A DNA stretch of 64,000 nt from Candidatus Woesearchaeota archaeon (GCA_964344555.1 CAYFNK010000002.1:1498-65497); one strand, 5' to 3'; shown: positions 10,426 through 52,880, counted from the stretch's first letter. Notes: a model not told the origin generated them from the letters alone. Made by a program: numbers and translations.

Positions 10426-10514
10426 GTTCTAAATCGGGTTGATTTAATATATAAAGGTTTTCATGAAAGATATAGAAACTTTTTTAAAAAGATTATCGTC
10501 TATGAATCTATTAT

Positions 10515-10586
10515 GAGCCTGTGGCGTAGTGGTAGCGCATCGCCCTTACAAGGCGGGGGTCGCCGGTTCGAATCCGGTCGGGCTCA
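10515..10586 (+). tRNA. tRNA-Val (anticodon UAC)
   Basis: A 72-nt cloverleaf folded by hand. Acceptor GAGCCTG/CGGGCTC, D stem GCGT/GCGC, anticodon stem TCGCC/GGCGG with loop CTTACAA, T arm GCCGG-TTCGAAT-CCGGT, discriminator A. No encoded CCA. It is a GC-rich island in AT-rich DNA. Confidence 0.9.
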
Positions 10587-10589
10587 TAT

Positions 10590-11519
10590 TCAATTACAAA
10601 CATACTTAGAATACAAACTTAAAGCTTCTTTTTTTGTTTTTGATTTTATCATTACTTTATCTTTAAAGAAAGTCATATCTTTGTAAATGAATGATTTTCC
10701 TAAGTCTTTTCCTTTATATTTTTGTTTTAGTTTGTTATACTTAAAATCTCCATAAATTAGATAAGTATCTCTTCCACAAAATGAGATTATCTTTTGTTTT
10801 TTCTTTCCTGTTAGATATTCAAATTGTTTGTTACATGCAGGACAGTTCTTATTTTTCTTTACTTTTATTTTATCCAATGAATTATTTGTTAAATTCACAA
10901 AAATTAGATCTTTTTCATAATCTTGTTTTGTTAATATCTTTATTGCCTCACTCACCTGTAAAGATGAAACTAAAGTTGATGCAGAATTCATAACTCCAGA
11001 AGTTTCACAGGTTTCTAGATTTGATGCTTCTATTACAAAACATCTTAAACATGTCTTTTCAGGTATGGAATTGAAAATGTATCCTGAATTTCTAATTACC
11101 GCAGAATAAATCCATGGGATATTTTCTTTTATTGAATATTCGTTGATTAGAAATCTAGTTTTTAAATTATCCGTACAGTCTAATATAATATCTGCCTTAA
11201 GTAAGTTAATATTGTTTTCATCTAGATTATCAAAATATGATTTAACTTTAACTTTAGAATTTATTTTTTTCAAGTATTTTTCTACTACTTCTGCCTTTGG
11301 TTTGTTAACATCTTTTTCTGTAAATAAGTGTTGTCTTTGTAGATTTGATTCTTCTATGTAATCTCTATCTATTAGAATTAGATTACTAACTCCTGCTCTT
11401 GTTAAAAGCTCTGCAGAAGAAGATCCAGTTGCTCCTAAACCTACTATTGCAACTGTGGAATTAATTAGTTTTTCTTGATTTTCCTTTCCTAAAACCTTTT
11501 CTTGTCTTGAATATCTCAT
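10590..11519 (-). CDS. ubaA: E1-like ubiquitin-like-protein activating enzyme (ThiF/MoeB/UbaA family)
   Basis: N-terminal RYSRQ, nucleotide-binding VGLGATGSSSAELLTRAGV, DCTDNLKTRFLIN, and zinc-binding pairs CLRC and CPAC. There is an extra C-terminal extension of about 80 aa. Confidence 0.8.
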   Translation of the reverse strand: MRYSRQEKVLGKENQEKLINSTVAIVGLGATGSSSAELLTRAGVSNLILIDRDYIEESNLQRQHLFTEKDVNKPKAEVVEKYLKKINSKVKVKSYFDNLDENNINLLKADIILDCTDNLKTRFLINEYSIKENIPWIYSAVIRNSGYIFNSIPEKTCLRCFVIEASNLETCETSGVMNSASTLVSSLQVSEAIKILTKQDYEKDLIFVNLTNNSLDKIKVKKNKNCPACNKQFEYLTGKKKQKIISFCGRDTYLIYGDFKYNKLKQKYKGKDLGKSFIYKDMTFFKDKVMIKSKTKKEALSLYSKYVCN

Positions 11520-11754
11520 AGGTTTTTGTTGAATGTAAACGCTTTAAAATCTTACTTTTTCTATTATTTTTGTTTTTTTGGAAGAAAAAGATGTACAATA
11601 TTGGTAAAATACCTATAGATTGAATAATAATCATTGATGCAAACCATATTCTTTGTTTATTTCTAGCTGCTCTCCATAATCCCCAAGATTTCCAGGGTAA
11701 AGCCCAAGCAATCGCTAGAATTATCCAAAATGTCTTCCAATCTAAATTTATCAT
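11461..11754 (-). CDS. Small membrane protein (2 TM) with a basic tail
   Basis: Hydrophobic segments WIILAIAWALPW and ASMIIIQSIGILPILYIFFF, plus motif LWRAARNKQRIWF. The 3' end overlaps the E1 gene start by 59 nt. Confidence 0.45.
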   Translation of the reverse strand: MINLDWKTFWIILAIAWALPWKSWGLWRAARNKQRIWFASMIIIQSIGILPILYIFFFQKNKNNRKSKILKRLHSTKTYEIFKTRKGFRKGKSRKTN

Positions 11755-11792
11755 AAGTATTTTTTAAAATTTAGTTTTAAATAATTTACTAA

Positions 11793-11987
11793 TTAACCTC
11801 CAGAAATAACTGATAAGAACTTTACTTTATCTTTATCTTTTAGTTTTGAATCTTCTATTGCAATTTCATTATTTATTGTTACCAAGAATTCATTTAAACT
11901 AATATTTAGTTTTTCAGCTAATTCTTTGACTGTATCAGCTTCTACTTCGTGATTTTCATTTGTTCTTTCATTAAGTACTTTTATCAT
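11793..11987 (-). CDS. Small archaeal ubiquitin-like modifier / sulfur carrier (ThiS/MoaD fold, SAMP/TtuB-like)
   Basis: A 64-aa protein ending ..FLSVISGG directly before the stop (C-terminal diglycine). It sits in an operon with the PP-loop thiolase and the E1. Confidence 0.75.
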   Translation of the reverse strand: MIKVLNERTNENHEVEADTVKELAEKLNISLNEFLVTINNEIAIEDSKLKDKDKVKFLSVISGG

Positions 11988-12219
11988 TGTTTCTGTATGG
12001 CGTTACTTTATTGCATTTATAACATTCATATAATTCTAGTATATTATCCATTTTGCTTTTATGCATTAAATACATATTTGGAGTTAAACATTTTTCACAT
12101 TCTTTTATTTCCTTACCATCTAAAAATTTTTCTATTGTTTTCTCTAACATTCCTTGTTCTTTTAATTTATCTAAAACTTCTTCTTTTAATTCTTCTTTAA
12201 GTTGATATTTTTTATCCAT
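11971..12219 (-). CDS. Small zinc-ribbon protein (82 aa)
   Basis: CEKC..CYKC pairs. It overlaps the ncsA stop by 8 nt and the SAMP start by 17 nt, so it lies tightly within the operon. Confidence 0.5.
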   Translation of the reverse strand: MDKKYQLKEELKEEVLDKLKEQGMLEKTIEKFLDGKEIKECEKCLTPNMYLMHKSKMDNILELYECYKCNKVTPYRNNDKST

Positions 12220-13135
12220 TTTTTATCTTTTCAGCATAAATACAAGTTTGACATTTTTCTTTTGATGTTGGTTCTCCACAAATCTCACATTCATTTATCC
12301 CTTTGTTTTCTTTTGAGTATTTTTCTTTTAACTCTGGAAGTATTTCTAAGAATGAGTTTACTATTCCGTGTTTTGATCCTGAGTAAATCTCTTCCATCTG
12401 ATTTATGAAGTTTCTCATCTTAGACCTGTAATTTAAGTGTGAGTACGGGCATTCGTTAAAATCTGTAGAAAGTTTGTTTAGATAAGCGTAAGTCATAACT
12501 TCTTTCTCTGTTACAAAATATAAAGGTTTAATTCTTCTTATGAAGTTTTTATTATCTGATAATCCAGTTATTGGTCCTAATCTTGCTGAGATTGTTAAGT
12601 TATTTCTAAATTGATTCATTAAGATTGTTTGAGATTCATCATCTAGATTATGTCCTGTTGCTAGTTTGTTTATCTTTAATTCTTTAGCTTTTGAGTTTAG
12701 TAAGTATCTTCTGAAAACCCCGCAAATGCTACAAGGTATTGTGTCTGTTTTTTTTACTATTGAATCTAACTTTTTGCCGAATGTTTCTTTGTAAGATGCT
12801 ATGTGTAAATCTATGTTGTTTTCTTTACAGTATTTTTTTGCAAAAGTTAATGTTTTGTCCCTATATCCTTTAATTCCTTCGTCAATCGTTATTGCTACTA
12901 GTTTTGTTGTTCTTTGTTGTTTTGCTAATTGATTTAATATATGTAGTGTAGTTAGAGAGTCTTTTCCACCAGATAAGGCTACTCCGACTATATCTCCCTT
13001 TTTGAATAATTTATGAGTTCTAATTGTTTTCTTTACTTTTTTCTCAAAATAAGAAATAAAACATTTTTTACAGAGAGTTATGTGGCTATTTGTGAGTTTA
13101 ATTACAGGTTTTTCTTTACATTTCTTACATGTCAT
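12212..13135 (-). CDS. ncsA: tRNA 2-thiolation PP-loop ATPase (NcsA/Ctu1/TtuA family)
   Basis: PP-loop ALSGGKDS. N-terminal zinc finger CKKC..CKKC and C-terminal CEIC..CQTC. Also GHNLDDE. Confidence 0.85.
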   Translation of the reverse strand: MTCKKCKEKPVIKLTNSHITLCKKCFISYFEKKVKKTIRTHKLFKKGDIVGVALSGGKDSLTTLHILNQLAKQQRTTKLVAITIDEGIKGYRDKTLTFAKKYCKENNIDLHIASYKETFGKKLDSIVKKTDTIPCSICGVFRRYLLNSKAKELKINKLATGHNLDDESQTILMNQFRNNLTISARLGPITGLSDNKNFIRRIKPLYFVTEKEVMTYAYLNKLSTDFNECPYSHLNYRSKMRNFINQMEEIYSGSKHGIVNSFLEILPELKEKYSKENKGINECEICGEPTSKEKCQTCIYAEKIKNG

Positions 13136-13247
13136 AAGAAAATGGCCTAAAAATTGGCTTATAAAAGTTACTAAATGTTAGTTTATCTTGACAACTTGTC
13201 ATAGACCAGGATATAGTATTTAAAGAAGAGATACTATATTTTTCTGT

Positions 13248-14478
13248 ATGGAAGACTATTCCGTTTTATTAGAAGATAATTTTAGAAAAGATTTTTTGAA
13301 AAAAGCCATTAAAATTAAAGGCAGTCAATTTAAATTAGCATCTTATCTTAATTCTAAATTAGAAAGAAGAATTATAAGAGAAAATGTGAAAGATTGGTTA
13401 AATGGAAAACATTTCAATGGATGGGACATACTAATGCCCATTTCTGTGTTAAAAGAAATATGTCTGCTAAACAAAATTAGTATTGATAAGGTACTAGGTA
13501 ATGCTATAAAATACAACCCTTCTTGGAAAAATCCTGGAAAGAAGAAATTCCTTGTAAAGAATAATGGAACAATTATTTTAAAAAAGAATAATAAACTGTT
13601 TATAGACCTAGCTTCGATTCTTCCTGCTAAATCTCTGGAATCTCAAAGATCTAGAAAGGAACTTCCTCTATTCTGCAAAATTAGGGAGAATAATATTTTT
13701 CTTTGGTCAGAAGCTTGTTGGAAGAAATCAAAGATAGAACTAAGGCGTTATATAGAATTAAACGATCTTTTTTTCAAAGGTTGCGCCATATATTTGGGTG
13801 AAGGAACTACAAAAACAAAAGGTGCTTCTAATATATCAATAAGTTTTGGAAATTCTGAACCTTCAATAAATAACTTGTTTCTTAAATGGTTAGATCTCTT
13901 TTTGATTAATTATACTCCAAAGTATGAGATTGAATATAATGGCAAATGTGAAGATAAGACTAAAATAGAAGGATATTGGAAACTAAATATTTGTAAATTA
14001 ATAGATAAAATAAATATAAGGGAAAGAGTAAATTATGGTAGCAGGCTAGTAAATAATAGAGGAGTTTTAAAAATAAGAGTAAATTCTACCGTTCTGAAAG
14101 CATTTGTTATTAAATTACTTAATGTTTCAAAAACAATTGTATTAGATAATAAAGAATGGCGTATTTCTTATTTGAAAGGCTTATTGGCTTCTGAGGTCAG
14201 TTCCAGATAAAAGATTATATGACGTAACTGTTGGTGTCTTAGATAAAAACGAGAGATATTTTATTAAAAGATTATTAAGGAAACTTAATTTAAAATTTTG
14301 TGATGGAAAGAATCAATTACATATAACTCATTGGGATTCTTTTTGTAATCTAATTAATTATGATGCTTTTGAAATTCCTCACGAAAATGGTTTTTCCAAA
14401 AAAACTAGATTTTTGGAAGGATTTATGAACCGTTCAAAGACTAAAACTATTTGGAATTATAATTCCTTGGAAACATAG
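13248..14478 (+). pseudogene. Free-standing LAGLIDADG-type homing endonuclease-like gene, apparently split by a frameshift near 14196
   Basis: Frame 1 (13248-14210) carries FFKGCAIYLGEGT and ends in YLKGLLASE-VSSR*. The adjacent frame is open from 14197 to the stop at 14476-14478 and reads SVPDKRLYDVTVGVLDKNERYFIKRLLRKLNLKF.., which would restore a second ..GLLASE(G)SV.. dodecapeptide motif. Confidence 0.55.
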
Positions 14479-15845
14479 GGTCCTTCTAGTTTGTAACCGA
14501 GGTTATAATAGTACTCTCTAACTCCTATTCCAGATATTACTACAATTTTATTACAATCATTTTCTTTAGCAATTTTCTCTGCTTCTAACATTAATTTTTT
14601 ACCTAGTCCATTGTGTTGTGATTCTTTTTTTGATTCATCTTCTAATGGGACTTGCTGCCCGTAAACATGAAGTTCTCTAACAATCAGAGTTTTATCAGTA
14701 ATTTCTTTTCTGTGTGGCTTGTAAGGAATTCTTAATCTGCATAAGCCTAGTAAGTAGTCTTGACTTTCGTAAGATAAGAAGAATTCTTTTCCATTGCTTG
14801 CATCGTATTTTAGAACTTTTAATTCAGGTTTATCTTCTGAATTTAATTTTGATAATCCAACTTCCCTGCATCTTATACATTTACATTTTAAACCAAGCTC
14901 TTTCATTTTTTGGTTTAATTCTACTCTCGTGTTTGATCTAATCTTTCCAGTTTTGATATCTTTATGGTCGAATTGTCTCATTATTCTCATAATTCTACAG
15001 TATTCTGGAACTTCGTTTTTTAATCTACAAATTAAATCAATCATTTCTTCTTCTGTATAAAGTTTGAACTCTCCTTTTAGATATTGTCTGTACATTGGAG
15101 TATCTTCCATTAATTGTAGGGGGTAAATCTTTAATTGGTCTGGTTTAAAATCTTGATTTGAAAATAATTCTTTGAAAACTTCTAAATCTCTTTTTGGAGT
15201 TGAACCAGGTAAACCTGGCATCATATGATAACCAACTTTAAATCCGGAATCTTTTAGTAATTTTGTAGATTTTATTACGTCTTTTAGAGTATGTCCTCTG
15301 TTTATTCTTTTATACACTGAGTTGTCTAAGTGTTGTACTCCTAATTCTACTCTTGTACAACCAAAATCTAACATTCTGTCAATATGTTCCTCAAATGCCC
15401 AATCTGGTTTCGTTTCTATACACAATGCTACACATCTATGTTTTGCGGTTTCGTTTAGCTTCTTTGCTTCTTCTAATGTTTCTGACTCTTTTTCATTTAA
15501 ACCATCAAAAACTTTTTTTATAAATTCATATTGATAATCTTCAGGATATGCTAGGAATGTTCCTCCAAGAATTATAATTTCTATTTTACTTACAGGATGA
15601 CCCATATTCTTGAAACCTCTTAATCTAGCTTCAATCTGCTTTAATGGATCAAATTGTAAAGACATTGCTCTCATAATTGCAGGACTTTTGGTAGTATAAC
15701 TATTTGGAGTCCCTGCCTTTACTCCTCCTGGACAATATGTACATCTTCCGTGAGGACATGCATAGGGTTTACAAACTACTGTAAGAGGTGTAACTCCTGA
15801 TTTTGTTCTTATAGGTTTTTTAATTCCAGTTAAATTTTGTGTCAT
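14457..15845 (-). CDS. elp3: Elp3-family radical-SAM/GNAT tRNA U34 carboxymethyl-forming enzyme
   Basis: Radical-SAM cluster motif CPHGRCTYCPGG. Central Elp3 region (ELGVQ, GYHMMPGLPG). C-terminal GNAT motif QHNGLGKKLMLEAEKIA. Confidence 0.9.
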   Translation of the reverse strand: MTQNLTGIKKPIRTKSGVTPLTVVCKPYACPHGRCTYCPGGVKAGTPNSYTTKSPAIMRAMSLQFDPLKQIEARLRGFKNMGHPVSKIEIIILGGTFLAYPEDYQYEFIKKVFDGLNEKESETLEEAKKLNETAKHRCVALCIETKPDWAFEEHIDRMLDFGCTRVELGVQHLDNSVYKRINRGHTLKDVIKSTKLLKDSGFKVGYHMMPGLPGSTPKRDLEVFKELFSNQDFKPDQLKIYPLQLMEDTPMYRQYLKGEFKLYTEEEMIDLICRLKNEVPEYCRIMRIMRQFDHKDIKTGKIRSNTRVELNQKMKELGLKCKCIRCREVGLSKLNSEDKPELKVLKYDASNGKEFFLSYESQDYLLGLCRLRIPYKPHRKEITDKTLIVRELHVYGQQVPLEDESKKESQHNGLGKKLMLEAEKIAKENDCNKIVVISGIGVREYYYNLGYKLEGPYVSKEL

Positions 15846-17827: not shown

Positions 17828-18556
17828 TTATTTCTTTAATTTATTTACCATGTGGTAAGAGATGAATATTAAAGGTAAGCTAACCAATTGTCCCCAGGTA
17901 AATCCAAAGATGTAAGTATCTATTACTCTTAGGTATTCTACAAAAAATCTTAGAGTTGAATAAAGTAAGACAAATAACCAGAAGATAAATCCTCTTTTGT
18001 GTTTCTTTAAGTTATATGTTTTAAATAAAACTATGAAAATGAATAGATTTTTTAGAGATTCATAAATCTGAGTTGGATGTCTTTTTCCTTCTACTCCAGG
18101 AAATTCAACAGCCCACGGTAAGGTAGTTATTGGCCCGTAAAATTCTGCGTTTAGGAAATTTCCTATTCTTCCTAGAGATAAAGCTAATGCTAGAGGTACC
18201 ACTAATATGTCTGCAAAATCATAGAAATGAATGTTTTTTTTCTTGCAATAGTATGATGTTGCTATAACTGCTCCTAGAAATCCACCATGAAAAACCATGC
18301 CTCCGTTCCATACTGCAAGGATTTGATATAAATTTTGAGAGTAAAATTCCCAGTTACCTAGGACATGAGCTAGTCTTCCACCAATGATTGAAAATGGAAT
18401 TAAATATATGAAAAAATCTTGCATATCTTCTTCTGAAATGTTTCTAGACTTAGCTAAGATTGGAGTAAACCAATATGCAAATAAGAATCCAACGGCATAG
18501 AATATTCCGTACCATCTAACTGAAAAACTTCCTATTTGAAAAGCTATCGGGTCCAT
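17828..18556 (-). CDS. lgt: Prolipoprotein diacylglyceryl transferase
   Basis: Lgt motifs RWYGIFYAVG, GGMVFHGGFLGAV, LGRIGNFLNAEFYG, RHPTQIYES. Confidence 0.85.
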   Translation of the reverse strand: MDPIAFQIGSFSVRWYGIFYAVGFLFAYWFTPILAKSRNISEEDMQDFFIYLIPFSIIGGRLAHVLGNWEFYSQNLYQILAVWNGGMVFHGGFLGAVIATSYYCKKKNIHFYDFADILVVPLALALSLGRIGNFLNAEFYGPITTLPWAVEFPGVEGKRHPTQIYESLKNLFIFIVLFKTYNLKKHKRGFIFWLFVLLYSTLRFFVEYLRVIDTYIFGFTWGQLVSLPLIFISYHMVNKLKK

Positions 18557-34619: not shown

Positions 34620-36671
34620 CTATCCAATAAAACTTACATGGTTTTTCTTATTCAACTTTATTATATTCTCAACAAAAGATTCTATCTTATTCTCATGACT
34701 AACTAATATTACTTGTTTTATATCTAAAGATTCTAATACTATTCTTAATCTATCCAACTGGGCTTCTGAAAAACCATCTGTAGGTTCATCTAGAATAATT
34801 AAATCCTTAGTTCTAATAGAAGTCATCAGATTATTAATAACTTGATTTAAAGCTAAACGATAAGCTAAAGCAGCAGCAGTCTTCTCTCCACCAGATAAAT
34901 GTAAGTAATCAATATCATAACCATTTTGTTCTATAACTGGAGTAAAACTTTCATCTATCCTAATCTTCAACAACTCATTATCAATAAGAATATCAAACCA
35001 ATCTCTAAATAACTTATCAAAGTCAGAAAACGCCTTCAACATTATCTTCTTCTCAATTACTTCCATCAAATTAACAAATTCTTTCTCTAAAAAGAACTGT
35101 AAATCTATTAATTTAACAATATTTAGTTTAATTCTTTCCTTCTTTATTATTTCCTTATCTAAAGAGTTAACAAATTCCTTATTAGAACTTATATCTCTTT
35201 CAAAACCAACTTTTTCTGATTCTATTTTTCTTAATTCTTCTAGTAAACTATCTAGTTCTAGTTTTAATTTAGAATAAACTTCATTTAGATTATTAAATTC
35301 TAGAACTTCCTTGTTTAAAGATTCTAATTCTAGTTTTAAGTTTTCAACTTCTTTGGAGATTAAGACATTTTCTTCTTCTAGTTTTGCTTTTCTTAACTTT
35401 TTTTCTTCAAATGACTTCAACTTTAATTTTATTAATTCGATTTCTCTTTCTTTTTCCCTAAGTGCTTCTAATTCTTTATTTAAGTTTTCTAAGCTTTCTT
35501 CTTTTAATTGTAAACCTGAACTAAAATTCTTCAAATTATTTTCTGCTTCTAAAACTATCTTATCTTGTTCAGAAAAAACTCCTGATTTGTATTCATCTCC
35601 AACTAGTTGCTTACAAGTAGGACAAACATCTAAGTTGTGAAATTTTCCTTTAATATCTTTAGCGTGTTCAATTTTAATTTCATAAGTTCTAATTGTGTTT
35701 TTTATTGCGTCTAGTTTTTTAGTTGAACTAGAAATCTCTTCTTTTTTGGATTCAATTTGTTTAATTAATTCTTCAGAATTTGGAACTTCTTTGATTTCTG
35801 TATTTTTTATTTCTTCTTCTAAATTGTTAGCTTCATTCTTATTCCTTTCAATTTGAGATAAGTTTGATTCTAGTTTAGTATTTTTAACAGAAATTTTTGT
35901 TTTTATTTCATTTAGTTTTGTTATCTTGTCTTCAATTAACTTAATCTCTTCTTTTTTAGAATTAATTTTCTTATTAGATTCTTCATGTAATGGTAAAATC
36001 TTAGATAAGGATTCTTCTAAGTTTTTTATTTTAGTTAAAAACTCTTCTTTAGAACTTTTCTTTTCTTCTAAATCAGAGACCCTTCCTGTAAATTCTTTAA
36101 CTTTTAATTTTATCTTAGAAACAAAAAACTTTGTGTTATTAATTATTGTTTTATACTTTTCAATTCCAAAAACTCTTCTTAGAATGTCTAACCTTTCTGA
36201 AGGATTTTCTAGTAAAATATGTTTCATCTCTTCTTGAGGAGTATAAACTGTATATCTGTAGATTAAATCTTTACTTTTAGTTAGAACTTCTTGTGGGTAA
36301 TTTAGTAGGTTTATTATTTCTTGTTTTAGTTCTACTGTGCTTAGATCTTTTCTTTCTCCATCTATTTCTATATGTCCTGCATCTTGAGCTATTGATTTTT
36401 TTCCTCTTGAGAGATTTCTTTGAATTCTTATGTTTTTGTTTTTTATTTCGAAGTTTAGTTCTACTGAACCTTTATCTTCTCCATTTCTTAGTAAAGAGGC
36501 TCCTGAGAGATTTGTTCTTCTTGTTCCAAATAGTGCAAATTCTGTAGCTAGTAGAATTGTTGATTTACCTGACCCTATGTCTCCGCTTAGTAAGGTAGAA
36601 CCAGTTGGGAAGTTAATTTCTGCGTTTTCATAACTTCTTATGTTGTTTAGTTTGATAGTCTTAAGTAGCAT
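34620..36671 (-). CDS. rad50: DNA double-strand break repair ATPase Rad50 (short coiled coil)
   Basis: Walker A GDIGSGKST, long Lys/Glu coiled coil, zinc hook CPTC, signature LSGGEK, Walker B LIILDEPT. Confidence 0.9.
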   Translation of the reverse strand: MLLKTIKLNNIRSYENAEINFPTGSTLLSGDIGSGKSTILLATEFALFGTRRTNLSGASLLRNGEDKGSVELNFEIKNKNIRIQRNLSRGKKSIAQDAGHIEIDGERKDLSTVELKQEIINLLNYPQEVLTKSKDLIYRYTVYTPQEEMKHILLENPSERLDILRRVFGIEKYKTIINNTKFFVSKIKLKVKEFTGRVSDLEEKKSSKEEFLTKIKNLEESLSKILPLHEESNKKINSKKEEIKLIEDKITKLNEIKTKISVKNTKLESNLSQIERNKNEANNLEEEIKNTEIKEVPNSEELIKQIESKKEEISSSTKKLDAIKNTIRTYEIKIEHAKDIKGKFHNLDVCPTCKQLVGDEYKSGVFSEQDKIVLEAENNLKNFSSGLQLKEESLENLNKELEALREKEREIELIKLKLKSFEEKKLRKAKLEEENVLISKEVENLKLELESLNKEVLEFNNLNEVYSKLKLELDSLLEELRKIESEKVGFERDISSNKEFVNSLDKEIIKKERIKLNIVKLIDLQFFLEKEFVNLMEVIEKKIMLKAFSDFDKLFRDWFDILIDNELLKIRIDESFTPVIEQNGYDIDYLHLSGGEKTAAALAYRLALNQVINNLMTSIRTKDLIILDEPTDGFSEAQLDRLRIVLESLDIKQVILVSHENKIESFVENIIKLNKKNHVSFIG

Positions 36672-36721: not shown

Positions 36722-36729
36722 TTTATATA
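36722..36729 (+). promoter_or_regulatory. Putative TATA box for the precursor-peptide operon
   Basis: TTTATATA lies 42 nt upstream of the ATG at 36771. An AGAGGG ribosome-binding-like sequence is at 36760-36765. Confidence 0.3.
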
Positions 36730-36770
36730 TTTTGACTACGTTATTAACTAAAACTCCAAGAGGGAATAAA

Positions 36771-37010
36771 ATGGGCGATATGTACAAAAATTCTGCGTCA
36801 AAGTACAATAGTCTGAAAGACAATGAAAAGGAGATTCTTGGGATGAGTTCGGTGATTGAAAATGCACCTTATGAACTTATGAAAGATTACAAACTTGCTT
36901 TAAGTGGAGATTCTACTGGACAATCTAGTAGTAGTAGCCATAGTAGTAATTCTAGTAGCAGTAGTGCTTCAGGTGCAACTAGTAGCAAAAATCTCGAAGA
37001 CAAATTATAA
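36771..37010 (+). CDS. Candidate RiPP precursor peptide (79 aa) with a Ser-rich, Cys-free C-terminal core
   Basis: The ATG at 36771 is preferred over the TTG at 36732. Product MGDMYKNSASKYNSLKDNEKEILGMSSVIENAPYELMKDYKLALSGD-STGQSSSSSHSSNSSSSSASGATSS-KNLEDKL. It lies immediately upstream of YcaO. Confidence 0.6.
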   Translation: MGDMYKNSASKYNSLKDNEKEILGMSSVIENAPYELMKDYKLALSGDSTGQSSSSSHSSNSSSSSASGATSSKNLEDKL

Positions 37011-37042
37011 ATTTTAAAAGAGAGGTGTCTTAATTAAACAAA

Positions 37043-38281
37043 ATGACCCTCTCCAAAATTTTGAAAAGTTTAGAAAATATTGATTTAGTTGGAGATATTC
37101 ATGAGATATTTATGATAACTGATGAACCGAAAATACCAAATTATTTGTGTTATCCTAGCAAAAAATTTTCTAAAACATATAAATTAGATGATTCATTTGG
37201 GCAAGGTTTTGATTATAATTCTACTAAATCTAAGATTAAATCTGTTGGAGAATGTTTAGAAAGGCTTTGTTTGTACAATATAGGAGATAAACCTTTTGTT
37301 AAATCTAAATACGATCCAAATGATAAATTGTTTGTAGATCCTTCTATATTTTATTGCTATTCTTCTTCTCAGGATAAAAATAAGGAACAAACTTTAGAAA
37401 AAATAAGAAATAGTAAATTTAGGTGGTCTAAAGTTAAGAGACTTAATTCTGATGAAGAAAAATTTATTCCCGCTCAACTTATTTATTTAGATCCTATTTT
37501 TGATGATGAATTCCCAATAAGAAAAGAGAGAATTAGTACGGGTGCGGCGTTTGGTAAAACTGGAACAGAATTTGCATTTGAGGGGGGACTTATGGAATCT
37601 TTAGAAAGAGATGCAACTATGGGAGCTTATATTACTAAAAGAAGTATAAAGAGGATTTACAATCTTCCAAAAAAACTTGAAAATATGGTAGATTATCTAA
37701 GGAGATATCAGTTGGATGCAAATATATTTGATATTACTACTGATTTAAATGTTCCTAGCATTATGACTATTGTTTTAGATAAGACTGGAATTGGTGCAGC
37801 AGTGAATATTGGATCAAGGGCATCTACAAACTATTTTGATGCTATTGAAAAATCAATTCTAGAATCGATACATTGTAGAAGATCTAGTAGATTAATGAAG
37901 AAATTCCAATTTCCAAGTAAACTGCCTTCTGAAAATGAAATAGATTGTATGGACAATAGATTTTACTATTGGTATTCTAAAAATAGAATTAAAGACCTTG
38001 ATTTTTGGTTAAATACTTCTGAAAAAATTGATTATAAAAAATTAATTAGAAAAAATATAGATTTAAATTCTACGATTAATAACTTAGTTAAAGAAAACTA
38101 TAACATATTTGTTGGAGATTTAAGTTTACCGCAAATTAAAGATGAAGGTTTTGAAACAATTAAAGTGATAATCCCAGAATTGCATCCCCTATACCTTGAT
38201 GAAAATGCAAAATCGCTATACTCCAACCATTATGGAGAAATACTTGAAGACAAGGGCCTTAAACCCCATCCACTAACTTAA
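37043..38281 (+). CDS. YcaO-family cyclodehydratase (SagD/McbD-like)
   Basis: SKIKSVGECLERL, ISTGAAFGKTGTEFAFEGGLMESLERDATMG, and a Pro-containing C-terminus ..LKPHPLT. GAGGTG lies upstream. Confidence 0.75.
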   Translation: MTLSKILKSLENIDLVGDIHEIFMITDEPKIPNYLCYPSKKFSKTYKLDDSFGQGFDYNSTKSKIKSVGECLERLCLYNIGDKPFVKSKYDPNDKLFVDPSIFYCYSSSQDKNKEQTLEKIRNSKFRWSKVKRLNSDEEKFIPAQLIYLDPIFDDEFPIRKERISTGAAFGKTGTEFAFEGGLMESLERDATMGAYITKRSIKRIYNLPKKLENMVDYLRRYQLDANIFDITTDLNVPSIMTIVLDKTGIGAAVNIGSRASTNYFDAIEKSILESIHCRRSSRLMKKFQFPSKLPSENEIDCMDNRFYYWYSKNRIKDLDFWLNTSEKIDYKKLIRKNIDLNSTINNLVKENYNIFVGDLSLPQIKDEGFETIKVIIPELHPLYLDENAKSLYSNHYGEILEDKGLKPHPLT

Positions 38282-38282
38282 A

Positions 38283-38996
38283 ATGTTAAAAGATATAAAA
38301 AAATTTTATGAAAAAGTAAAGCTAAATAAAGCTACTGAAGATATTTCTATAGAAGTTCCATTGTCTTATGTACATGTTTTTCATAAAGAATATGAGAGGT
38401 TACCTTTTATAAATCTCCCAGAATTAGATAAGGATGGAGAATTTGAAACCCTGTTAGAATTACGTAAGTCAACTAGGCAATTTTCAGATAAACCTCTTAG
38501 TCTTAAAGACGTATCTAAAATACTTGGTTCTTGTAGAATTGTTGATGAAAAAAGAGTTCCAGAAAAAAGAACATATCCTTCCGGCGGGGCGAGATTTCCG
38601 GTTGAATTATATCTTATGTCTTATAACATTGAAGATCTAGAAAGTGGTGCTTATCACTATAACTTTAAGAAAAAAGGACTAGAATTACTTTTAGAAAAAA
38701 ATCTTGATAATAAAAAAAGAGAATTAATATCTCCTTACTTAGATAATCCTGCCGCTACAATAATTTTTACTTCCTCTATTCCTCGATCTGAAATAAAATA
38801 TGGAAATAGGGCATATCCTTACTCACTTATAGAAGCAGGACATATGGGTCAAAATATTCATTTAGCTTGTGCAGAAAAAGGAATTGGTTCTTGTTCAATT
38901 AGTGGTTTTGTTGATACAACAGTTAATAAACTTCTAGATCTAATTGAAGATGAGATCCTTTTGTATAGTATTAGTGTAAGGTGGGAAAAAATATGA
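38283..38996 (+). CDS. SagB-type FMN-dependent azoline dehydrogenase (nitroreductase fold)
   Basis: RKSTRQFSD, TYPSGGARFPVELYL, Lys-Tyr motif in EIKYGNRAYPY, EAGHMGQNIHLA. The start is 1 nt after the YcaO stop. Confidence 0.75.
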   Translation: MLKDIKKFYEKVKLNKATEDISIEVPLSYVHVFHKEYERLPFINLPELDKDGEFETLLELRKSTRQFSDKPLSLKDVSKILGSCRIVDEKRVPEKRTYPSGGARFPVELYLMSYNIEDLESGAYHYNFKKKGLELLLEKNLDNKKRELISPYLDNPAATIIFTSSIPRSEIKYGNRAYPYSLIEAGHMGQNIHLACAEKGIGSCSISGFVDTTVNKLLDLIEDEILLYSISVRWEKI

Positions 38997-39775
38997 GGGA
39001 AAAATTAGAGTATAATATCTCTTTATTTATGGATAGTCCATTAAATGAGAAGTATATTGAGAATACTATTAAAAAAATTAATTATGATAAAGAAATTGGA
39101 TTTGCAGGTTTTAAGAATAAAGAAGGTTTGAAACAGTTTCTTAATTTCTCAGTTTTTGGTAAAGATAGTAATAGTGAACATATTATCCCTGATTTAAATG
39201 AGATATCCAAGATAATTGGTAAAACTCTAGAGTTATGTTCGAAGTTTATCTCAACTAAAATAAATATTTTTGTGTTCTCAACAGTTGATAAATTTACAAT
39301 ATCTAAACTCGGAGGAGTTTCTGGTTATTCCCCTTGGAAAAATACAATTTTATTAAATATTAGTGAAGGTGAGAATTTAGAGAAAGCAATAAAAGAAACA
39401 CTTGTTCACGAGTTGGCTCATGCAATATCTCTTAATAATATTAAAGTTGAAAAGTTAAAGGAATCCCTTATATTTGAAGGTATAGCTGAAAACTTTAAAG
39501 AAGAAATAGTCAAAGAAGAAAATGTGATTTCAATAAAGCCGCTCTCTGAGAAAAGATCTTTTGAAATTCTTAAAGATTTAAATGGTAAACTTGATAATTA
39601 TGATTCTGATCTTTATAGAGAATTATTTTTTGGTACTGGAAAATATCCTTTGTGGACAGGGTATTCAATTGGATATTACTTAGTTAAAAAATATCTAGAA
39701 AACTTGGAAGTTGTGAACTGGAGTGATATATTTAAGACAGATTTATCTGAAATCTTTGATAAAGTAATTATTTAA
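38993..39775 (+). CDS. HExxH zinc metalloprotease-like protein (DUF2268-like)
   Basis: TLVHELAHAI with downstream FEGIAENF. The ATG at 38993 overlaps the SagB-like stop as ATGA and is preferred to the GTG at 38981. Confidence 0.55.
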   Translation: MREKLEYNISLFMDSPLNEKYIENTIKKINYDKEIGFAGFKNKEGLKQFLNFSVFGKDSNSEHIIPDLNEISKIIGKTLELCSKFISTKINIFVFSTVDKFTISKLGGVSGYSPWKNTILLNISEGENLEKAIKETLVHELAHAISLNNIKVEKLKESLIFEGIAENFKEEIVKEENVISIKPLSEKRSFEILKDLNGKLDNYDSDLYRELFFGTGKYPLWTGYSIGYYLVKKYLENLEVVNWSDIFKTDLSEIFDKVII

Positions 39776-39950
39776 TATACTTTTTTATAGCTCCAGGAGT
39801 GTTGTTCAATCTGCTATAACAATACCCATGTTCTGTTTTAGCTTCCTCACTTATTTTTTTCTCTAAAGGGCTATTTGTTTTAATTTCTTTTCTATGGAAA
39901 TAATTTAAATATTTATCTAATAATTCTTTAAGTTTATATTTCATACTCAT
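39768..39950 (-). CDS. Hypothetical protein (60 aa)
   Basis: ORF only; downstream of mre11 on the same strand. Confidence 0.3.
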   Translation of the reverse strand: MSMKYKLKELLDKYLNYFHRKEIKTNSPLEKKISEEAKTEHGYCYSRLNNTPGAIKKYIK

Positions 39951-39987: not shown

Positions 39988-41208
39988 TTAATCCCAAATA
40001 TCCTCCAAACTCAAACTTTTAATCAGATTCTTCTCTAATCTCTTCTCAAAATCGGCATTCTTCTCACCTTCTAATTTTTCTTCTGCTAAAACTTCTTTCA
40101 AATCAGATAAACTTTCTTTAGTAAACTCTAACTTGGAATCTTGCTTAGAAAATTCTTCAATTAAACTCTCTTCAACTTTATCAATGTCTGTAGACTCAAT
40201 CTCTAGTTCTTGTATCTCTTTAGTTTGTAACTTATTAGTATTCTTCAAAACAATATAAGCATCGTCTAACTTATCAAAAATCTCATTAGAATTAATATCT
40301 GAAACTTTTCCACTAAATAAACTACCTTTAATTCTTAAAGTAACAATTTTATCCTTAGAATCTAATTTATTTACTTCTTGAATAATAAATTCTTCTGCTT
40401 CTGATGATGTTTTTCCATCAACATTTAATTTCACTTTCTCAACTTTCTTTGGTTCAATAAATTCGTATCTTAATCTTGTAATTTTATTATTTTGAACTTC
40501 AACAATGTAAAAACCTCCACCGCCAAATTTCTCTAACTCCATAAAATTATTCGGAAAAGTAGCTCCTGGATAAGTAACTAAACCAAACCCTTCTGGATTT
40601 GAATCAAAAACAACGTGAGGATGTCCTCCAGCATAATAATCAAAACCTTTTGGAAATTTATCTAAATCTATGCCTTCAACCATTTCCATTCCTTGAGGTT
40701 TATATTCATTAATAATGTGATGAAATAAAAATATCTTGAAACCTTCTTCTGCTTCTAAATTAGTCTTATCTAGAATATCATAGTCTAATCTTTCCAAACC
40801 TTTTGCCTTTCCATATAGGCCAGTTAGTTTGGCTCCAGTTTTATCTGTTGTAAACTTTAATTTTAAAGAATCTTCACTTCTTTCAATTTTCATAACATTT
40901 GTAACTAGTCCAGAATTTTCAAAAACGTCTATCATAGTTTTCCCAGAAGGACTAAAATCATGACTTCCAGGAATTATGTAACATTCTATCTCCCTATCTT
41001 TTAATTTTTTAAGAATTGAACTAACTTCTTTGATTAAATCTATATTTGGTAATGCGGTATTAAACAAATCTCCAGCAATAAGAACAAATGCAACATTTTC
41101 TTCTATACACTTATCTATTCCTCTCTTAAAGGACTCTGTACTCACTATATTGAGCTTTTCTTCTTTCCATCCACCTATGTGTACATCAGAGAAGTGTGCA
41201 AATTTCAT
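39988..41208 (-). CDS. mre11: DNA double-strand break repair nuclease Mre11
   Basis: Calcineurin-like phosphoesterase motifs FAHFSDVHIG, AGDLFN, PGSHD, GGHPH. Acidic C-terminal region. Confidence 0.85.
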   Translation of the reverse strand: MKFAHFSDVHIGGWKEEKLNIVSTESFKRGIDKCIEENVAFVLIAGDLFNTALPNIDLIKEVSSILKKLKDREIECYIIPGSHDFSPSGKTMIDVFENSGLVTNVMKIERSEDSLKLKFTTDKTGAKLTGLYGKAKGLERLDYDILDKTNLEAEEGFKIFLFHHIINEYKPQGMEMVEGIDLDKFPKGFDYYAGGHPHVVFDSNPEGFGLVTYPGATFPNNFMELEKFGGGGFYIVEVQNNKITRLRYEFIEPKKVEKVKLNVDGKTSSEAEEFIIQEVNKLDSKDKIVTLRIKGSLFSGKVSDINSNEIFDKLDDAYIVLKNTNKLQTKEIQELEIESTDIDKVEESLIEEFSKQDSKLEFTKESLSDLKEVLAEEKLEGEKNADFEKRLEKNLIKSLSLEDIWD

Positions 41209-50165: not shown

Positions 50166-51047
50166 TTATTTACGAACATGTTTAAATTTTTCAGAACAAT
50201 ATTCTATTATTTTGTCTTCTACTTTTATTCCTGAAGCTTCTCTGAATGCTATGAAATTTGGACTTCTGTTGCATTCTAAAATGTAAAGTTGTCCTTTTCT
50301 TGTTTCTGCAACATCTACTCCATAGATATCTCCTTTATGATTTTTTACAGAATCTAGTGCAAAGTTTTCTATCTTTTCATTTCTTAGATATTCAAAATTT
50401 GATCCTAGTGTTGCGTTTTTAATTAGTGAATCTGTTCTTTTTTTACAAACTCCAAGACTTTCTTCTCCTAAAATAAGAACCCTGTATTCCTCTTTAATTG
50501 GAATATATTCTTGTATTATTACGTCAGTAAGATTTTGATTTGTGTATCCTTTCAAATCATTTTTATCTAGTATAATATTTACGCCTTGTCCTTCCTTTCC
50601 TTCATTAGGTTTTATAACAAATGGAAACTCCCAAGTGTCTGCTATCTTCTCCATATTCTCGTCAAATCTAGGAAGATACACTGTCCTTGGATAATTCAAG
50701 CTGTCTCTTCTTTGTAATTGAGAAAGATACTTGTTTAACGGAAATACTAAACTTTCTGCCGGATCTACAGTTACTTTCCCATTTACTTCCATAGATTTTA
50801 CAAGCTCATATATTGATCTTTCTGCCCCTCTTGTTCTTCTAGTTAACAAAACATCATAATCTAAAAGATTTTTATCTTCATATTCTAAATCTAAGAATCC
50901 ATTATTCATATCATACCTTACTTTTGTTGGATCGACTAGTAAAGTTTCTAGTCCTTTTTTTCTTGAAGATTTTACAATTAATCTGTCTGTTTCGTGAAGA
51001 TCAATATTCTTTGCCAAATGACTTGTTGTTAACGCTAATTTTCTCAT
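50166..51047 (-). CDS. ATP-grasp ligase, RimK/LysX-like
   Basis: FPFVIKPNEGKEGQGV, YRVLILGEE, YGVDVAETRKGQLYILECNRSPNF. Confidence 0.7.
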   Translation of the reverse strand: MRKLALTTSHLAKNIDLHETDRLIVKSSRKKGLETLLVDPTKVRYDMNNGFLDLEYEDKNLLDYDVLLTRRTRGAERSIYELVKSMEVNGKVTVDPAESLVFPLNKYLSQLQRRDSLNYPRTVYLPRFDENMEKIADTWEFPFVIKPNEGKEGQGVNIILDKNDLKGYTNQNLTDVIIQEYIPIKEEYRVLILGEESLGVCKKRTDSLIKNATLGSNFEYLRNEKIENFALDSVKNHKGDIYGVDVAETRKGQLYILECNRSPNFIAFREASGIKVEDKIIEYCSEKFKHVRK

Positions 51048-51129
51048 GAAAAGGGAAATTTGATAAAACTTTTAAAACTATTTACTTCAGTTTAATAGTA
51101 TATTTAAATTACGTTAGACTTTCTTAGTT

Positions 51130-51831
51130 ATGATTATAGATTCCCATGCACATGTTGGTTATGAAACTAGAACACAGTATCAAAAACCTAAAGATCTTCT
51201 TAGAATTATGGATGCTTCGGGAATAGATAAATCGGTAGTTTTCCCTTTTGGTCCGGAATTTTCTAAGAATCAATCTTATTCTAGAATAAATGAAGCAATG
51301 GCTAGTTTGTTGTCAAATAAAAGATTTATTCCCTTTGGAAGAATTAATCAGTTATCAAAAGATATGTTTTCTGAGGCAGAAAATATTTCTTCACTTGGTC
51401 TTAAGGGAATAAAGATCCATACACATAGGGAATCTATTAAGTGGTATGGCCCTTTGTTTAGAAAAATGGATAAGTTTGATCTTCCCTTAATTATTCATAC
51501 TGGAAATAATTACAATTCTGATGTGAGACATCTTAGAAATATGCCTTTTTCTAATCCAATAATCATAGCGCATGGAGGAAAAGATAGATTTCTAGACGCT
51601 GTAGAACTAGTAAACTCAAGCAGTAATATTTATATAGAGACCTCTCTTCTCTCGCTCCGAAGAACTCAGGTATTAATCAAAAAAATAAAGGATAAGTCTA
51701 AAATACTTTTTGGTTCTGACTCTCCTTTCCATCATCCTGAGCTTGAGTCAAAAAAGATAAGATATGCGTGTAGTGACAAGTATCTCGTTGAAGATATACT
51801 TGGAAATAATATCAAGAAAATACTAAAATGA
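51130..51831 (+). CDS. Metal-dependent amidohydrolase (TIM-barrel, COG2159-like)
   Basis: IIDSHAHVG, IKIHTH, IIAHGG, GSDSPF. Confidence 0.65.
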   Translation: MIIDSHAHVGYETRTQYQKPKDLLRIMDASGIDKSVVFPFGPEFSKNQSYSRINEAMASLLSNKRFIPFGRINQLSKDMFSEAENISSLGLKGIKIHTHRESIKWYGPLFRKMDKFDLPLIIHTGNNYNSDVRHLRNMPFSNPIIIAHGGKDRFLDAVELVNSSSNIYIETSLLSLRRTQVLIKKIKDKSKILFGSDSPFHHPELESKKIRYACSDKYLVEDILGNNIKKILK

Positions 51832-52880
51832 GTGAAGAGAAAAAATACAAGGTACTTTATGTATGTAGGGACAGAAATCTTGAAGATCCTAGTACCTCTA
51901 CTGAGTTAAATTTGATTTATGCAGCTTATGCAGAAGGAAATGACGTTTCTATATTAGACCCACACGACTTTTATGTGAAGAGTGGAGAATTATATGGGAT
52001 TACAAAGAGACCAAATGCTGAAAAGATAAATAGTTTGGAAACTTATGCAGGATATTTGGAAAATGAAAAATATACTCTTTTTGAAGCTTCTCCTCTGAAT
52101 AATTTCGATATTGTTTTTTCTAGAGTTGCATATAGAGATAATGGTCCTGAAGAAAAACAAAGTTTTGATACTACTCTTAATTATCTTTCTATATTGAAAA
52201 CTTTGAATCCTAATATTGCCTTCATGAATGACCCTGATGGAATAATAAAAAGTGGATCTAAACTTTATGATACTTTAATATTTAATGATTTAATGCCAGA
52301 AACACACATCACAAAAGATTCTAATAGATTGAGAAAAATTATCAGAGAAGCAAATGCTGAAGGGACCGGATTAATTGGTAAGCCTACTGATGGAATGGGA
52401 GGTAGTTCTGTAATGCCTTTGCCTAAGAAGAATTATGGTGTTTTTGCAGACTTGTTGATACAGCACTATGAAAATGCTATAATTCAACACAGTATAAACG
52501 GCATTGATAGAAGATTATTTTTATTAGATGGAGAGATTTTAGCTGCGTATAAAAAAACTCCTTCTGAAGGGGACAGTAGAGCTAATGTTACTTCTGGGGC
52601 TACTATTGAAAACTATGCTCTTCAAAAAGTTGACAGAGATATTGTATCAAATATAAAAGACAAAATAGCAAGAGATGGGCTTTATTTTTGTGGACTGGAT
52701 GTTATGGGTCCTGAAGAAGAAGGAAATTTAGAAAATACTAAACTTTTGGAATTGAATGTTAGATGTCCTTCTGGTATAGCTTATTTGGATCATGCATTAA
52801 AAGAAGATGCTGCTTCTAAGATAATAAAGTCTGCAGAAAATAAATATGAACTTTTAAATTCTCCTAAAGAAAAAGCTTAA
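51828..52880 (+). CDS. ATP-grasp ligase, glutathione-synthetase (GshB)-like
   Basis: LIGKPTDGMGGSSV, DRRLFLLDGEILAAYKKTPSEGDSRANVTSGA, GLDVMGP..LLELNVRCPSG. ATGA overlap with the amidohydrolase. Confidence 0.65.
   Translation: MSEEKKYKVLYVCRDRNLEDPSTSTELNLIYAAYAEGNDVSILDPHDFYVKSGELYGITKRPNAEKINSLETYAGYLENEKYTLFEASPLNNFDIVFSRVAYRDNGPEEKQSFDTTLNYLSILKTLNPNIAFMNDPDGIIKSGSKLYDTLIFNDLMPETHITKDSNRLRKIIREANAEGTGLIGKPTDGMGGSSVMPLPKKNYGVFADLLIQHYENAIIQHSINGIDRRLFLLDGEILAAYKKTPSEGDSRANVTSGATIENYALQKVDRDIVSNIKDKIARDGLYFCGLDVMGPEEEGNLENTKLLELNVRCPSGIAYLDHALKEDAASKIIKSAENKYELLNSPKEKA

Follow-up and report, generated by a model that had tools for sequence, protein, structure and literature searches.

A 64,000-nucleotide stretch of DNA from Candidatus Woesearchaeota archaeon (GCA_964344555.1, CAYFNK010000002.1:1498-65497; the whole stretch is called the window below, and positions are counted from its first letter) carries, between 36.7 and 39.8 kb, four genes of the + strand that are packed into about 3 kb and likely form a small operon for a peptide that is made by ribosomes and modified after its translation (RiPP). 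The first open reading frame (ORF; 36771..37010) encodes a peptide of 79 amino acids (AAs) that appears to be the precursor. The second (37043..38281) encodes a 412-AA, single-domain and predicted ATP-dependent YcaO cyclodehydratase (D protein), recognised by Pfam, NCBIfam, PDB profile and fold comparisons, and the third (38283..38996) a 237-AA SagB-type azoline dehydrogenase (B protein) that is predicted to depend on flavin mononucleotide (FMN). The fourth (38993..39775) encodes a DUF2268 (YjaZ-like) metallopeptidase of 260 AAs from its ATG that is a candidate leader or follower peptidase. The peptide and YcaO genes are 32 nt apart, the YcaO and SagB genes 1 nt apart, and the SagB and DUF2268 genes overlap at an ATGA, so the ORF coordinates reproduce the four co-directional genes and the spacing given in an original prediction made from the sequence alone. 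All of the motifs quoted there are also found: SVGECLERL, ISTGAAFG...GGLMESLERDA and KPHPLT in the YcaO, RKSTRQF, YPSGGARFPVELY, EIKYGNRAY and EAGHMGQN in the SagB-like protein, and VHELAHAI in the DUF2268 protein. The stated beginning of the whole stretch of four genes, 36722, is not that of the peptide gene, whose ATG is at 36771; 36722 coincides with a TTTATATA box (36722..36730, +), a candidate archaeal TATA box of the operon about 45 nt 5' of that ATG. This box and a GAGGG that lies 7 nt ahead of the ATG resemble, respectively, a promoter of archaeal type and a ribosome-binding site. Mechanical ORF calling starts the peptide at a TTG at 36732, giving 92 AAs; the 79-AA gene and the other three cassette genes are also present in the independent gene calls of three public assemblies of this genome (ENA PRJEB17505, contigs to 146 kb). 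No frameshift is present in the cassette genes of the window and the catalytic residues are all intact. A fold test gives no support for an attenuator hairpin in the gap that separates the peptide gene from the YcaO gene, as the fold is no better than those of shuffled sequences (z = -0.7).

The 79-AA peptide matches no existing Pfam or NCBIfam model and, judged by its homologues, is a member of a new putative precursor family. Small ORFs homologous to it adjoin the YcaO gene in 19 distinct loci, and every family locus that has enough sequence carries a small ORF next to the cluster and on its strand; this ORF lies directly upstream of the YcaO gene in nearly all of them and downstream of the DUF2268 gene in two (L011 and L012). 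The 19 precursors share a 14-AA leader box, EILGMSSVIENAPY in the window (AAs 21–34; 36831..36872, +), which is presumably the recognition sequence. It has the consensus (E)LLE(M/L)S(S/P)xIENAPY and a mean pairwise identity of 57%, its E is invariant, and its I, N, A, P and Y are near-invariant. In a six-frame reading of 404 kb, a strict form of this motif is found just once in each locus, in every case within the small ORF beside the cluster, and at no other place. A spacer of 10–20 residues separates the box from the predicted core, which is SGDSTGQSSSSSHSSNSSSSSASGATSS in the window (AAs 45–72; 36903..36986, +; boundaries approximate) and contains 17 Ser, 2 Thr and no Cys. The cores are hypervariable across relatives and rich in Cys, Ser, Gly and Asn; Cys, Ser and Thr make up 42% of the residues after the leader motif versus 18% before it. 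The window peptide ends in the tail KNLEDKL (36987..37007, +), a "follower" that is semi-conserved, with the pattern LE(D/E)K(V/L), and has counterparts in about 12 of the 19 precursors, and the more distant L021 peptide ends in LESKVD. A conserved leader followed by a hypervariable core is the classic signature of a RiPP precursor, so the 79-AA ORF fits that role, and the expectation that the locus has its own precursor, kept next to the YcaO gene in relatives, is borne out.

The YcaO protein matches the Pfam YcaO family (E = 6e-34), and its best NCBIfam model is that of the SagD cyclodehydratases (TOMM_cyclo_SagD, TIGR03604; 144 bits, E = 5.7e-42), a score that lies below the curated cutoff of 219.25 bits for this model. 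The model for McrA thioamidation (TIGR03266, methanogenesis marker 1) gives only 36 bits against a cutoff of 365. A profile built from 23 YcaO homologues ranks MusD, TruD and LynD first among PDB entries, ahead of Methanocaldococcus jannaschii MJ1094 and then McbD. The AlphaFold2 model (pLDDT 90) has LynD as its top Foldseek match, with McbD and YcaO structures also matched, and the whole chain aligns with LynD as one YcaO domain without an additional domain, which rules out a hidden domain resembling a RiPP recognition element (RRE) within it. Residues E70/E73/R74, E162 and E185/E188/R189/D190, which make up the acidic ATP/Mg motifs ExxER and ExxERD, are invariant in the 23 homologues, and the ExxER motifs align with those of LynD. 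An N-terminal TDEPK loop is invariant in the family, and (T/N)DEPK is kept even in L019, L021, L022 and L024. The C-terminus is ...LKPHPLT, with a family consensus of LKPHPxT in which L406, P408 and H409 are invariant and K407 and P410 near-invariant. A proline-rich C-terminal PxPxP motif was reportedly proposed by Dunbar and colleagues in 2014 as a criterion for azoline-forming YcaOs, and the family C-terminus looks like a shortened form of it. A grouping of the enzyme with the azoline-forming YcaOs rather than with those of McrA type is supported by its model scores and its closest solved relatives. The original assignment of a YcaO of a thiazole/oxazole-modified microcin (TOMM) pathway agrees with these comparisons. 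A clustering with thioamide-forming YcaOs, which had been named as a refuting outcome, is disfavoured by them and by the finding that no TfuA gene is linked to the enzyme.

The SagB-like protein was likewise assigned correctly, as it passes the cutoff of the SagB-type dehydrogenase model (TIGR03605; 108 bits, curated cutoff 78) in addition to matching Pfam Nitroreductase (E = 1.5e-19). Its PDB matches are 3eo7, the thiazoline oxidase BmdC, McbC and CyaGox; in alignments its Lys-Tyr pair falls on FKY in McbC and on PKY in BmdC, and K-Y, RxYPSxGxRxPxExY and EAGxxxQN are invariant in 24 homologues. The protein also carries a conserved N-terminal extension.

The product of the last gene had been noted as an HExxH protein to be compared with DUF2268 and zincin models, and it belongs to DUF2268 (Pfam PF10026, E = 2e-26, 93 bits against a cutoff of 23.6). 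H139, E140, H143 and E166 are invariant in 32 homologues, the last of these being a Glu 23 residues after the second His of the HExxH. In the AlphaFold2 model (pLDDT 94) the fold is gluzincin-like; the best Foldseek matches, lugdulysin (M30) and the catalytic domains of M1 aminopeptidases, are weak (best E = 1.4e-3, TM score 0.43). The protein is thus probably a zinc peptidase of the gluzincin type. In the distant loci L022 (4161-5459) and L024 (3779-5095) an M16 (insulinase-type) peptidase gene stands in place of the DUF2268 gene, which fits a modular, replaceable leader-peptidase role. No RiPP context for DUF2268 was found in the searchable literature, and the cassette would give this family of "predicted proteases" its first functional context, that of a RiPP leader peptidase.

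The cassette is not confined to the window. More than 120 database YcaOs are 40–57% identical to its enzyme, all of them about 405–415 AAs long and named as Woesearchaeota, Pacearchaeota, Aenigmarchaeota or Nanoarchaeia, and the gene block recurs in more than 20 loci of Woese-, Pace-, Aenigm-, Micr- and Parvarchaeota. A survey for the block, which had been suggested at the outset for related DPANN genomes, covered 25 loci of GTDB species representatives; the YcaO and SagB genes are neighbours in 24 of them, and a DUF2268 gene comes after SagB in 14 of the 25 (and also in L029 and L030). Further metagenomic contigs, one of them marine (Tara Oceans), repeat the pattern. A bacterial member of the family, without DUF2268, is present on a 1.87-Mb Bryobacterales contig (L016), and more distant versions of the cassette are found in metagenome-assembled genomes (MAGs) labelled Gammaproteobacteria, Chloroflexia and Nanobdellota. 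We note that the precursor gene in the Bryobacterales MAG (5432-5764) encodes 110 AAs in which the leader AIENASYVF is followed by four "LAASC" repeats, giving it a multi-core look. The searchable literature holds no description of the DPANN YcaO/SagB/DUF2268 family, only global antiSMASH counts of DPANN or Nanoarchaeota RiPP clusters (PMC12144867, PMC12153355). This agrees with the statement that such a product is uncharacterised in this setting; what the original prediction lacked is that the locus is no isolated case but one member of a large DPANN family that is conserved.

We consider it likely that the cassette is a functional, minimal RiPP operon for a linear azol(in)e-containing peptide (LAP) of the LAP/TOMM type. 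The 79-AA precursor would be translated with an N-terminal leader that bears EILGMSSVIENAPY, and in the core, rich in Ser and Thr, the YcaO would activate backbone amides at the expense of ATP and cyclodehydrate Ser and Thr to (methyl)oxazolines, with a loss of 18 Da each. The SagB-type flavoprotein would then use FMN to oxidise the oxazolines to oxazoles (a further loss of 2 Da each), and the DUF2268 zinc peptidase would remove the leader and possibly the LEDKL tail as well. This chemistry, the order of the steps, the cleavage sites and export of the product are predictions. The leader would be read by the YcaO/SagB pair itself, with no E1-like, ThiF-like or RRE-containing partner; candidate recognition surfaces are, in the YcaO, the clade-specific and invariant TDEPK loop and, in the SagB-type protein, its conserved N-terminal extension.

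Several observations weigh against this interpretation, among them the lack of a leader-binding partner. The YcaO of a canonical LAP cluster has "in most cases" a leader-binding protein at its side that is either E1-like (C) or ThiF-like (F) (PMC7136475). Neither an E1-like C protein (TIGR03603) nor a ThiF-like F protein (TIGR03882), nor a fused equivalent of either, is encoded in the cluster or in any family locus. All-versus-all clustering of all ORFs from the 25 loci returned YcaO, SagB and DUF2268 as the only recurrent families, with no partner, TfuA, transporter or immunity gene among them. Characterised enzymes of the SagD/McbD type are reported to be inactive or very weak without their leader-binding partner. 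In the window itself, Pfam and NCBIfam scans of about 45 ORFs found no RRE/PqqD-like or SagC-like protein, and the sole E1-like protein among them is of the ThiF family (10590-11519; Pfam ThiF, 214 bits) and lies 26 kb away. This E1 was set aside as a RiPP partner; it is of the MoeB/ThiF/UbaA type and adjoins NcsA/TtuA and Elp3 genes, so it is judged to be a tRNA-thiolation gene that very probably has nothing to do with the RiPP cluster. The tRNA-modification cluster to which it belongs (10514-15845) consists of tRNA-Val(TAC) at 10514-10587, the E1 gene, NcsA/TtuA at 12212-13135 and Elp3 at 14457-15845. The DUF2268 protein was considered as a cryptic E1-like/RRE partner, comparable to AmiB of streptamidine, and ruled out; its model matches gluzincin peptidases only and nothing E1-like, which indicates that no leader-binding partner is disguised there. 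As a positive control, the outgroup locus L025 (Paceibacteria, YcaO 27% identical) does have a TIGR03882/SagC-type partner (67 bits, cutoff 37), encoded directly upstream of its YcaO (1393-2298). The original prediction of a self-contained azole pathway is therefore upheld as regards the two enzymes, the precursor and a candidate peptidase, but with no E1-like or ThiF-like partner its self-containment can be offered only as a proposal. The remark that no transporter or immunity gene is visible holds well beyond the window, as none is linked in any of the 25 loci or in the public assemblies of this genome, and this too counts against the interpretation. So do the SagD-model score of the YcaO below its cutoff, and a C-terminus that has PxP and then a terminal Thr rather than a full PxPxP. 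The substrate raises a further difficulty, as the window core is the only Cys-free one among the 19 precursors and Ser-only substrates are generally poorer for cyclodehydratases. A last adverse point concerns the flavoprotein, since in streptamidine biosynthesis a YcaO acting with an essential flavin dehydrogenase yields an amidine with zero net oxidation (PMC8442711).

The streptamidine case also lends weight to the alternative that the same genes perform some other chemistry, stopping at azolines or producing a backbone amidine, a macroamidine or, from a free sulfide source, thioamides, with the SagB-type protein in a structural or non-azole role. YcaOs are chemically versatile, and the partner-less ones of the bottromycin pathway make an amidine and a thiazoline (PMC7136475). 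The YcaO under study falls under the SagD-family cutoff, and its best PDB sequence match, MusD, was deposited as "YcaO-mediated ATP-dependent peptidase activity". MJ1094, which we take to be a thioamide-forming YcaO, is also a good structural match. Against such a change of chemistry, the SagB-type protein exceeds its curated cutoff and has an invariant Lys-Tyr, whereas AmiE of streptamidine has HY and is only about 10% identical to McbC. Thioamides in particular are disfavoured by the absence of a linked TfuA gene in any locus and by the low score with the McrA-thioamidation model. The cores, moreover, are enriched in Cys, Ser and Thr beside Gly and Asn, as are microcin B17-like substrates. 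On balance a different chemistry seems unlikely, with a small share of the probability. We regard as improbable a second alternative, a canonical azole pathway whose partner, either an E1-like/RRE protein too divergent to be recognised or the housekeeping E1 at 10590-11519, is encoded elsewhere, so that the cassette would not be self-contained. A cryptic partner has a precedent in AmiB of streptamidine, which was seen to be an RRE plus an E1-like domain only through fold prediction (PMC8442711). The window does encode a ThiF-family E1, several of its ORFs match no family, and it shows only 64 kb of the genome. The association of that E1 with NcsA/TtuA and Elp3 speaks for tRNA thiolation instead, and the only protein that recurs beside YcaO and SagB in the 25 loci is DUF2268, which models as a zincin. 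RiPP partners are in any case almost always clustered, and the genuine partner in L025 was readily detected, directly upstream of its YcaO.

It would also be possible to read the locus as having no secreted product, either as a conserved DPANN housekeeping system that modifies a small cellular protein, or some other protein with the adjacent ORF being incidental, or as a decaying remnant, and to this we give very little credence. The family is indeed very widespread over DPANN lineages, its loci lack transporter and immunity genes, and YcaOs do modify McrA and ribosomal protein uL16 (PMC5589413, PMC13063428). A housekeeping function is nevertheless hard to reconcile with a core that is hypervariable while the leader is conserved, with cassette positions that differ between loci, and with a patchy distribution, in which PheRS-alpha has database relatives at 84–93% identity, the best YcaO relative is at 57% and the cassette is missing at the mre11 site of close relatives (see below). 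Decay is opposed by the intact catalytic residues and the lack of frameshifts in the window.

Comparison with characterised systems shows what an azol(in)e-peptide operon of this kind would share with them and where it departs from them. In microcin B17 biosynthesis (McbBCD and McbA, E. coli) the YcaO McbD and the SagB-type McbC act on a Gly/Ser/Cys-rich core, and the window enzymes match the McbD and McbC chains of 6gos, with the Lys-Tyr aligned to McbC. The cassette differs in having neither an McbB-like, E1-like zinc-binding leader-binding subunit nor McbEFG-type export and immunity genes. The microcin B17 leader, as is proposed for that of the cassette, is removed by a zinc-dependent peptidase, but this is the housekeeping TldD/E, whereas the cassette encodes its own DUF2268 protein. 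Sequence identity is low, at 16% in the Foldseek alignment of the YcaO. The SagBCD enzymes of streptolysin S provide the best-fitting models, SagD (TIGR03604) and SagB (TIGR03605), and act on a similarly contiguous Cys/Ser/Thr-rich core; the window YcaO however reaches only 144 of the 219 bits, and SagC (TIGR03603) is missing from the cassette. The sag operons also carry the CaaX-type protease SagE and the ABC transporter SagGHI, neither of which the cassette has. Among archaeal TOMMs, the haloazolisins (Cox et al. 2015, PMC4603692) have mostly Ser-rich cores like that of the window, but their cyclodehydratases are fused and include a divergent C-protein domain, and in the thermoacidophisins the C protein is a discrete one and ABC transporters are present (PMC4603692). 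The DPANN family, with its single-domain YcaO, no C protein and DUF2268, is set apart from both by these descriptions.

Among solved structures, those nearest to the YcaO domain are the cyanobactin heterocyclases LynD, TruD and PatD together with MusD. Those enzymes are about 750–780 AAs long and only their C-terminal half is matched, the DPANN enzyme being the YcaO domain alone. In a cyanobactin heterocyclase the N-terminal half is an E1-like domain that is fused to the YcaO and bears an RRE. The leader box of the DPANN precursors (L-L-E-M-S...) is loosely like LAELSEE, which we take to be the cyanobactin leader recognition sequence; a macrocyclase and PatA/G-type proteases are absent from the cassette. 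Bottromycin enzymes form one thiazoline and one macroamidine, use a follower-peptide substrate and are not paired with a SagB dehydrogenase. BotC and BotCD resemble the window enzyme in being stand-alone YcaOs that act on a RiPP precursor without a partner (PMC7136475), but no close sequence relationship between them and the cassette YcaO was seen. The streptamidine (ami) cluster is similar in its makeup (PMC8442711); beside the precursor it encodes a single-domain YcaO whose C-terminus is Pro-rich, together with a flavin dehydrogenase and a hydrolase. It differs in having the cryptic E1-like/RRE protein AmiB, a dehydrogenase with an HY motif and an amidine product (PMC8442711), whereas the cassette SagB is canonical and an AmiB-like protein recurs in none of the 25 loci. 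The cassette thus differs from known LAPs in the absence of a partner, in a YcaO that scores below the SagD cutoff, in its DUF2268 peptidase and in a precursor that has no existing model.

A more specific proposal, which we put forward tentatively and think somewhat doubtful, is that the DPANN enzymes are a partner-independent azole synthetase that reads the LLEMSxIENAPY leader directly, and that its poly-azole products are possible effectors in symbiont-host or competitor interactions. Direct reading of the leader by the YcaO/SagB pair would be a third recognition mode for azol(in)e-forming YcaOs, beside those that use E1-like and ThiF-like partners. If this is true, the cassette would be the smallest known azole-installing machinery (four genes in about 3 kb, with a single-domain YcaO and no RRE/E1-like partner) and a clean model, useful for RiPP engineering, of a YcaO that reads a leader alone. 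The genomes of DPANN archaea are among the smallest of any cells, and their chemistry is almost unstudied. That the cassette has been retained in Woese-, Pace-, Aenigm-, Micr- and Parvarchaeota alike points to a role open to selection, which may lie in obligate interactions with hosts or competitors; that it is genome-reduced and host-dependent archaea which keep it is the reason for thinking that its products could be effectors of this kind. By analogy, such products could be membrane-active like streptolysin S or could target gyrase like microcin B17. Whatever the product, the leader box is a specific handle for genome mining.

The earlier attribution of the window to a DPANN-like archaeon, with the cassette in an information-processing neighbourhood, agrees with its other genes. 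The database neighbours of its PheRS-alpha are named Woesearchaeota, Nanoarchaeota or Nanoarchaeia, and archaeal housekeeping genes flank the cassette, among them those for XPD, Elp3, proteasome, exosome, RNase J and an intein-containing phosphoenolpyruvate (PEP)-utilising enzyme. The cassette lies between mre11 (39988..41208, -; Metallophos domain) and rad50 (34620..36671, -; AAA_23, SMC_N and SbcC Walker B domains), on the strand opposite to both, and these two genes appear to be the upstream and downstream halves, respectively, of a split mre11-rad50 operon. In L034, L036 and L041 (about 50% Mre11 identity) rad50 directly follows mre11, adjacent to it or overlapping it. In the close relatives L035 and L045 (mre11 84–88% identical in DNA) the match to the window breaks off at the stop codon of mre11, a synteny breakpoint beyond which are unrelated genes, neither rad50 nor the cassette. 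On these comparisons the mre11-rad50 site is a local rearrangement hotspot. The splitting of the operon, the empty site in close relatives and the gap between the PheRS-alpha and YcaO identities indicate that the cassette is accessory and patchily distributed, and mark it as an element that was apparently inserted between mre11 and rad50 in the lineage of the window. No meaningful direct or inverted repeats and no GC anomaly are present around it, so mobile-element borders are unsupported, and a search for virus-borne copies of the cassette gave one weak, partial match alone. In one relative (L032, 4330-5584; L033, 225-679) genes for PIN-domain, ribbon-helix-helix-domain and ParE-type toxin proteins are immediately upstream of the precursor gene; such toxin-antitoxin genes hint that the cassette is in a variable, accessory region there too.

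Just downstream of mre11 a 60-AA ORF (39768..39950, -), which shares 8 nt with the end of the DUF2268 gene, is called in the public assemblies; it has no Pfam or NCBIfam match, and its membership in the cluster is doubtful. Farther from the cassette, a gene on the - strand (17828-18556) encodes a 242-AA prolipoprotein diacylglyceryl transferase (Lgt) of bacterial type (Pfam LGT, 247 bits; TIGR00544, 188.7 bits against a cutoff of 118.9), which this DPANN genome has perhaps acquired from bacteria. The intein-containing protein mentioned above (103-3240, +) is a PEP-utilising enzyme of the PEP synthase/pyruvate phosphate dikinase type that is interrupted by a LAGLIDADG homing-endonuclease intein. 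Finally, a RimK-family ATP-grasp ligase (-), an amidohydrolase (+) and a glutathione-synthetase-like ATP-grasp enzyme (+) are encoded together at 50166-52880, and this trio may be a small peptide- or cofactor-ligation module.

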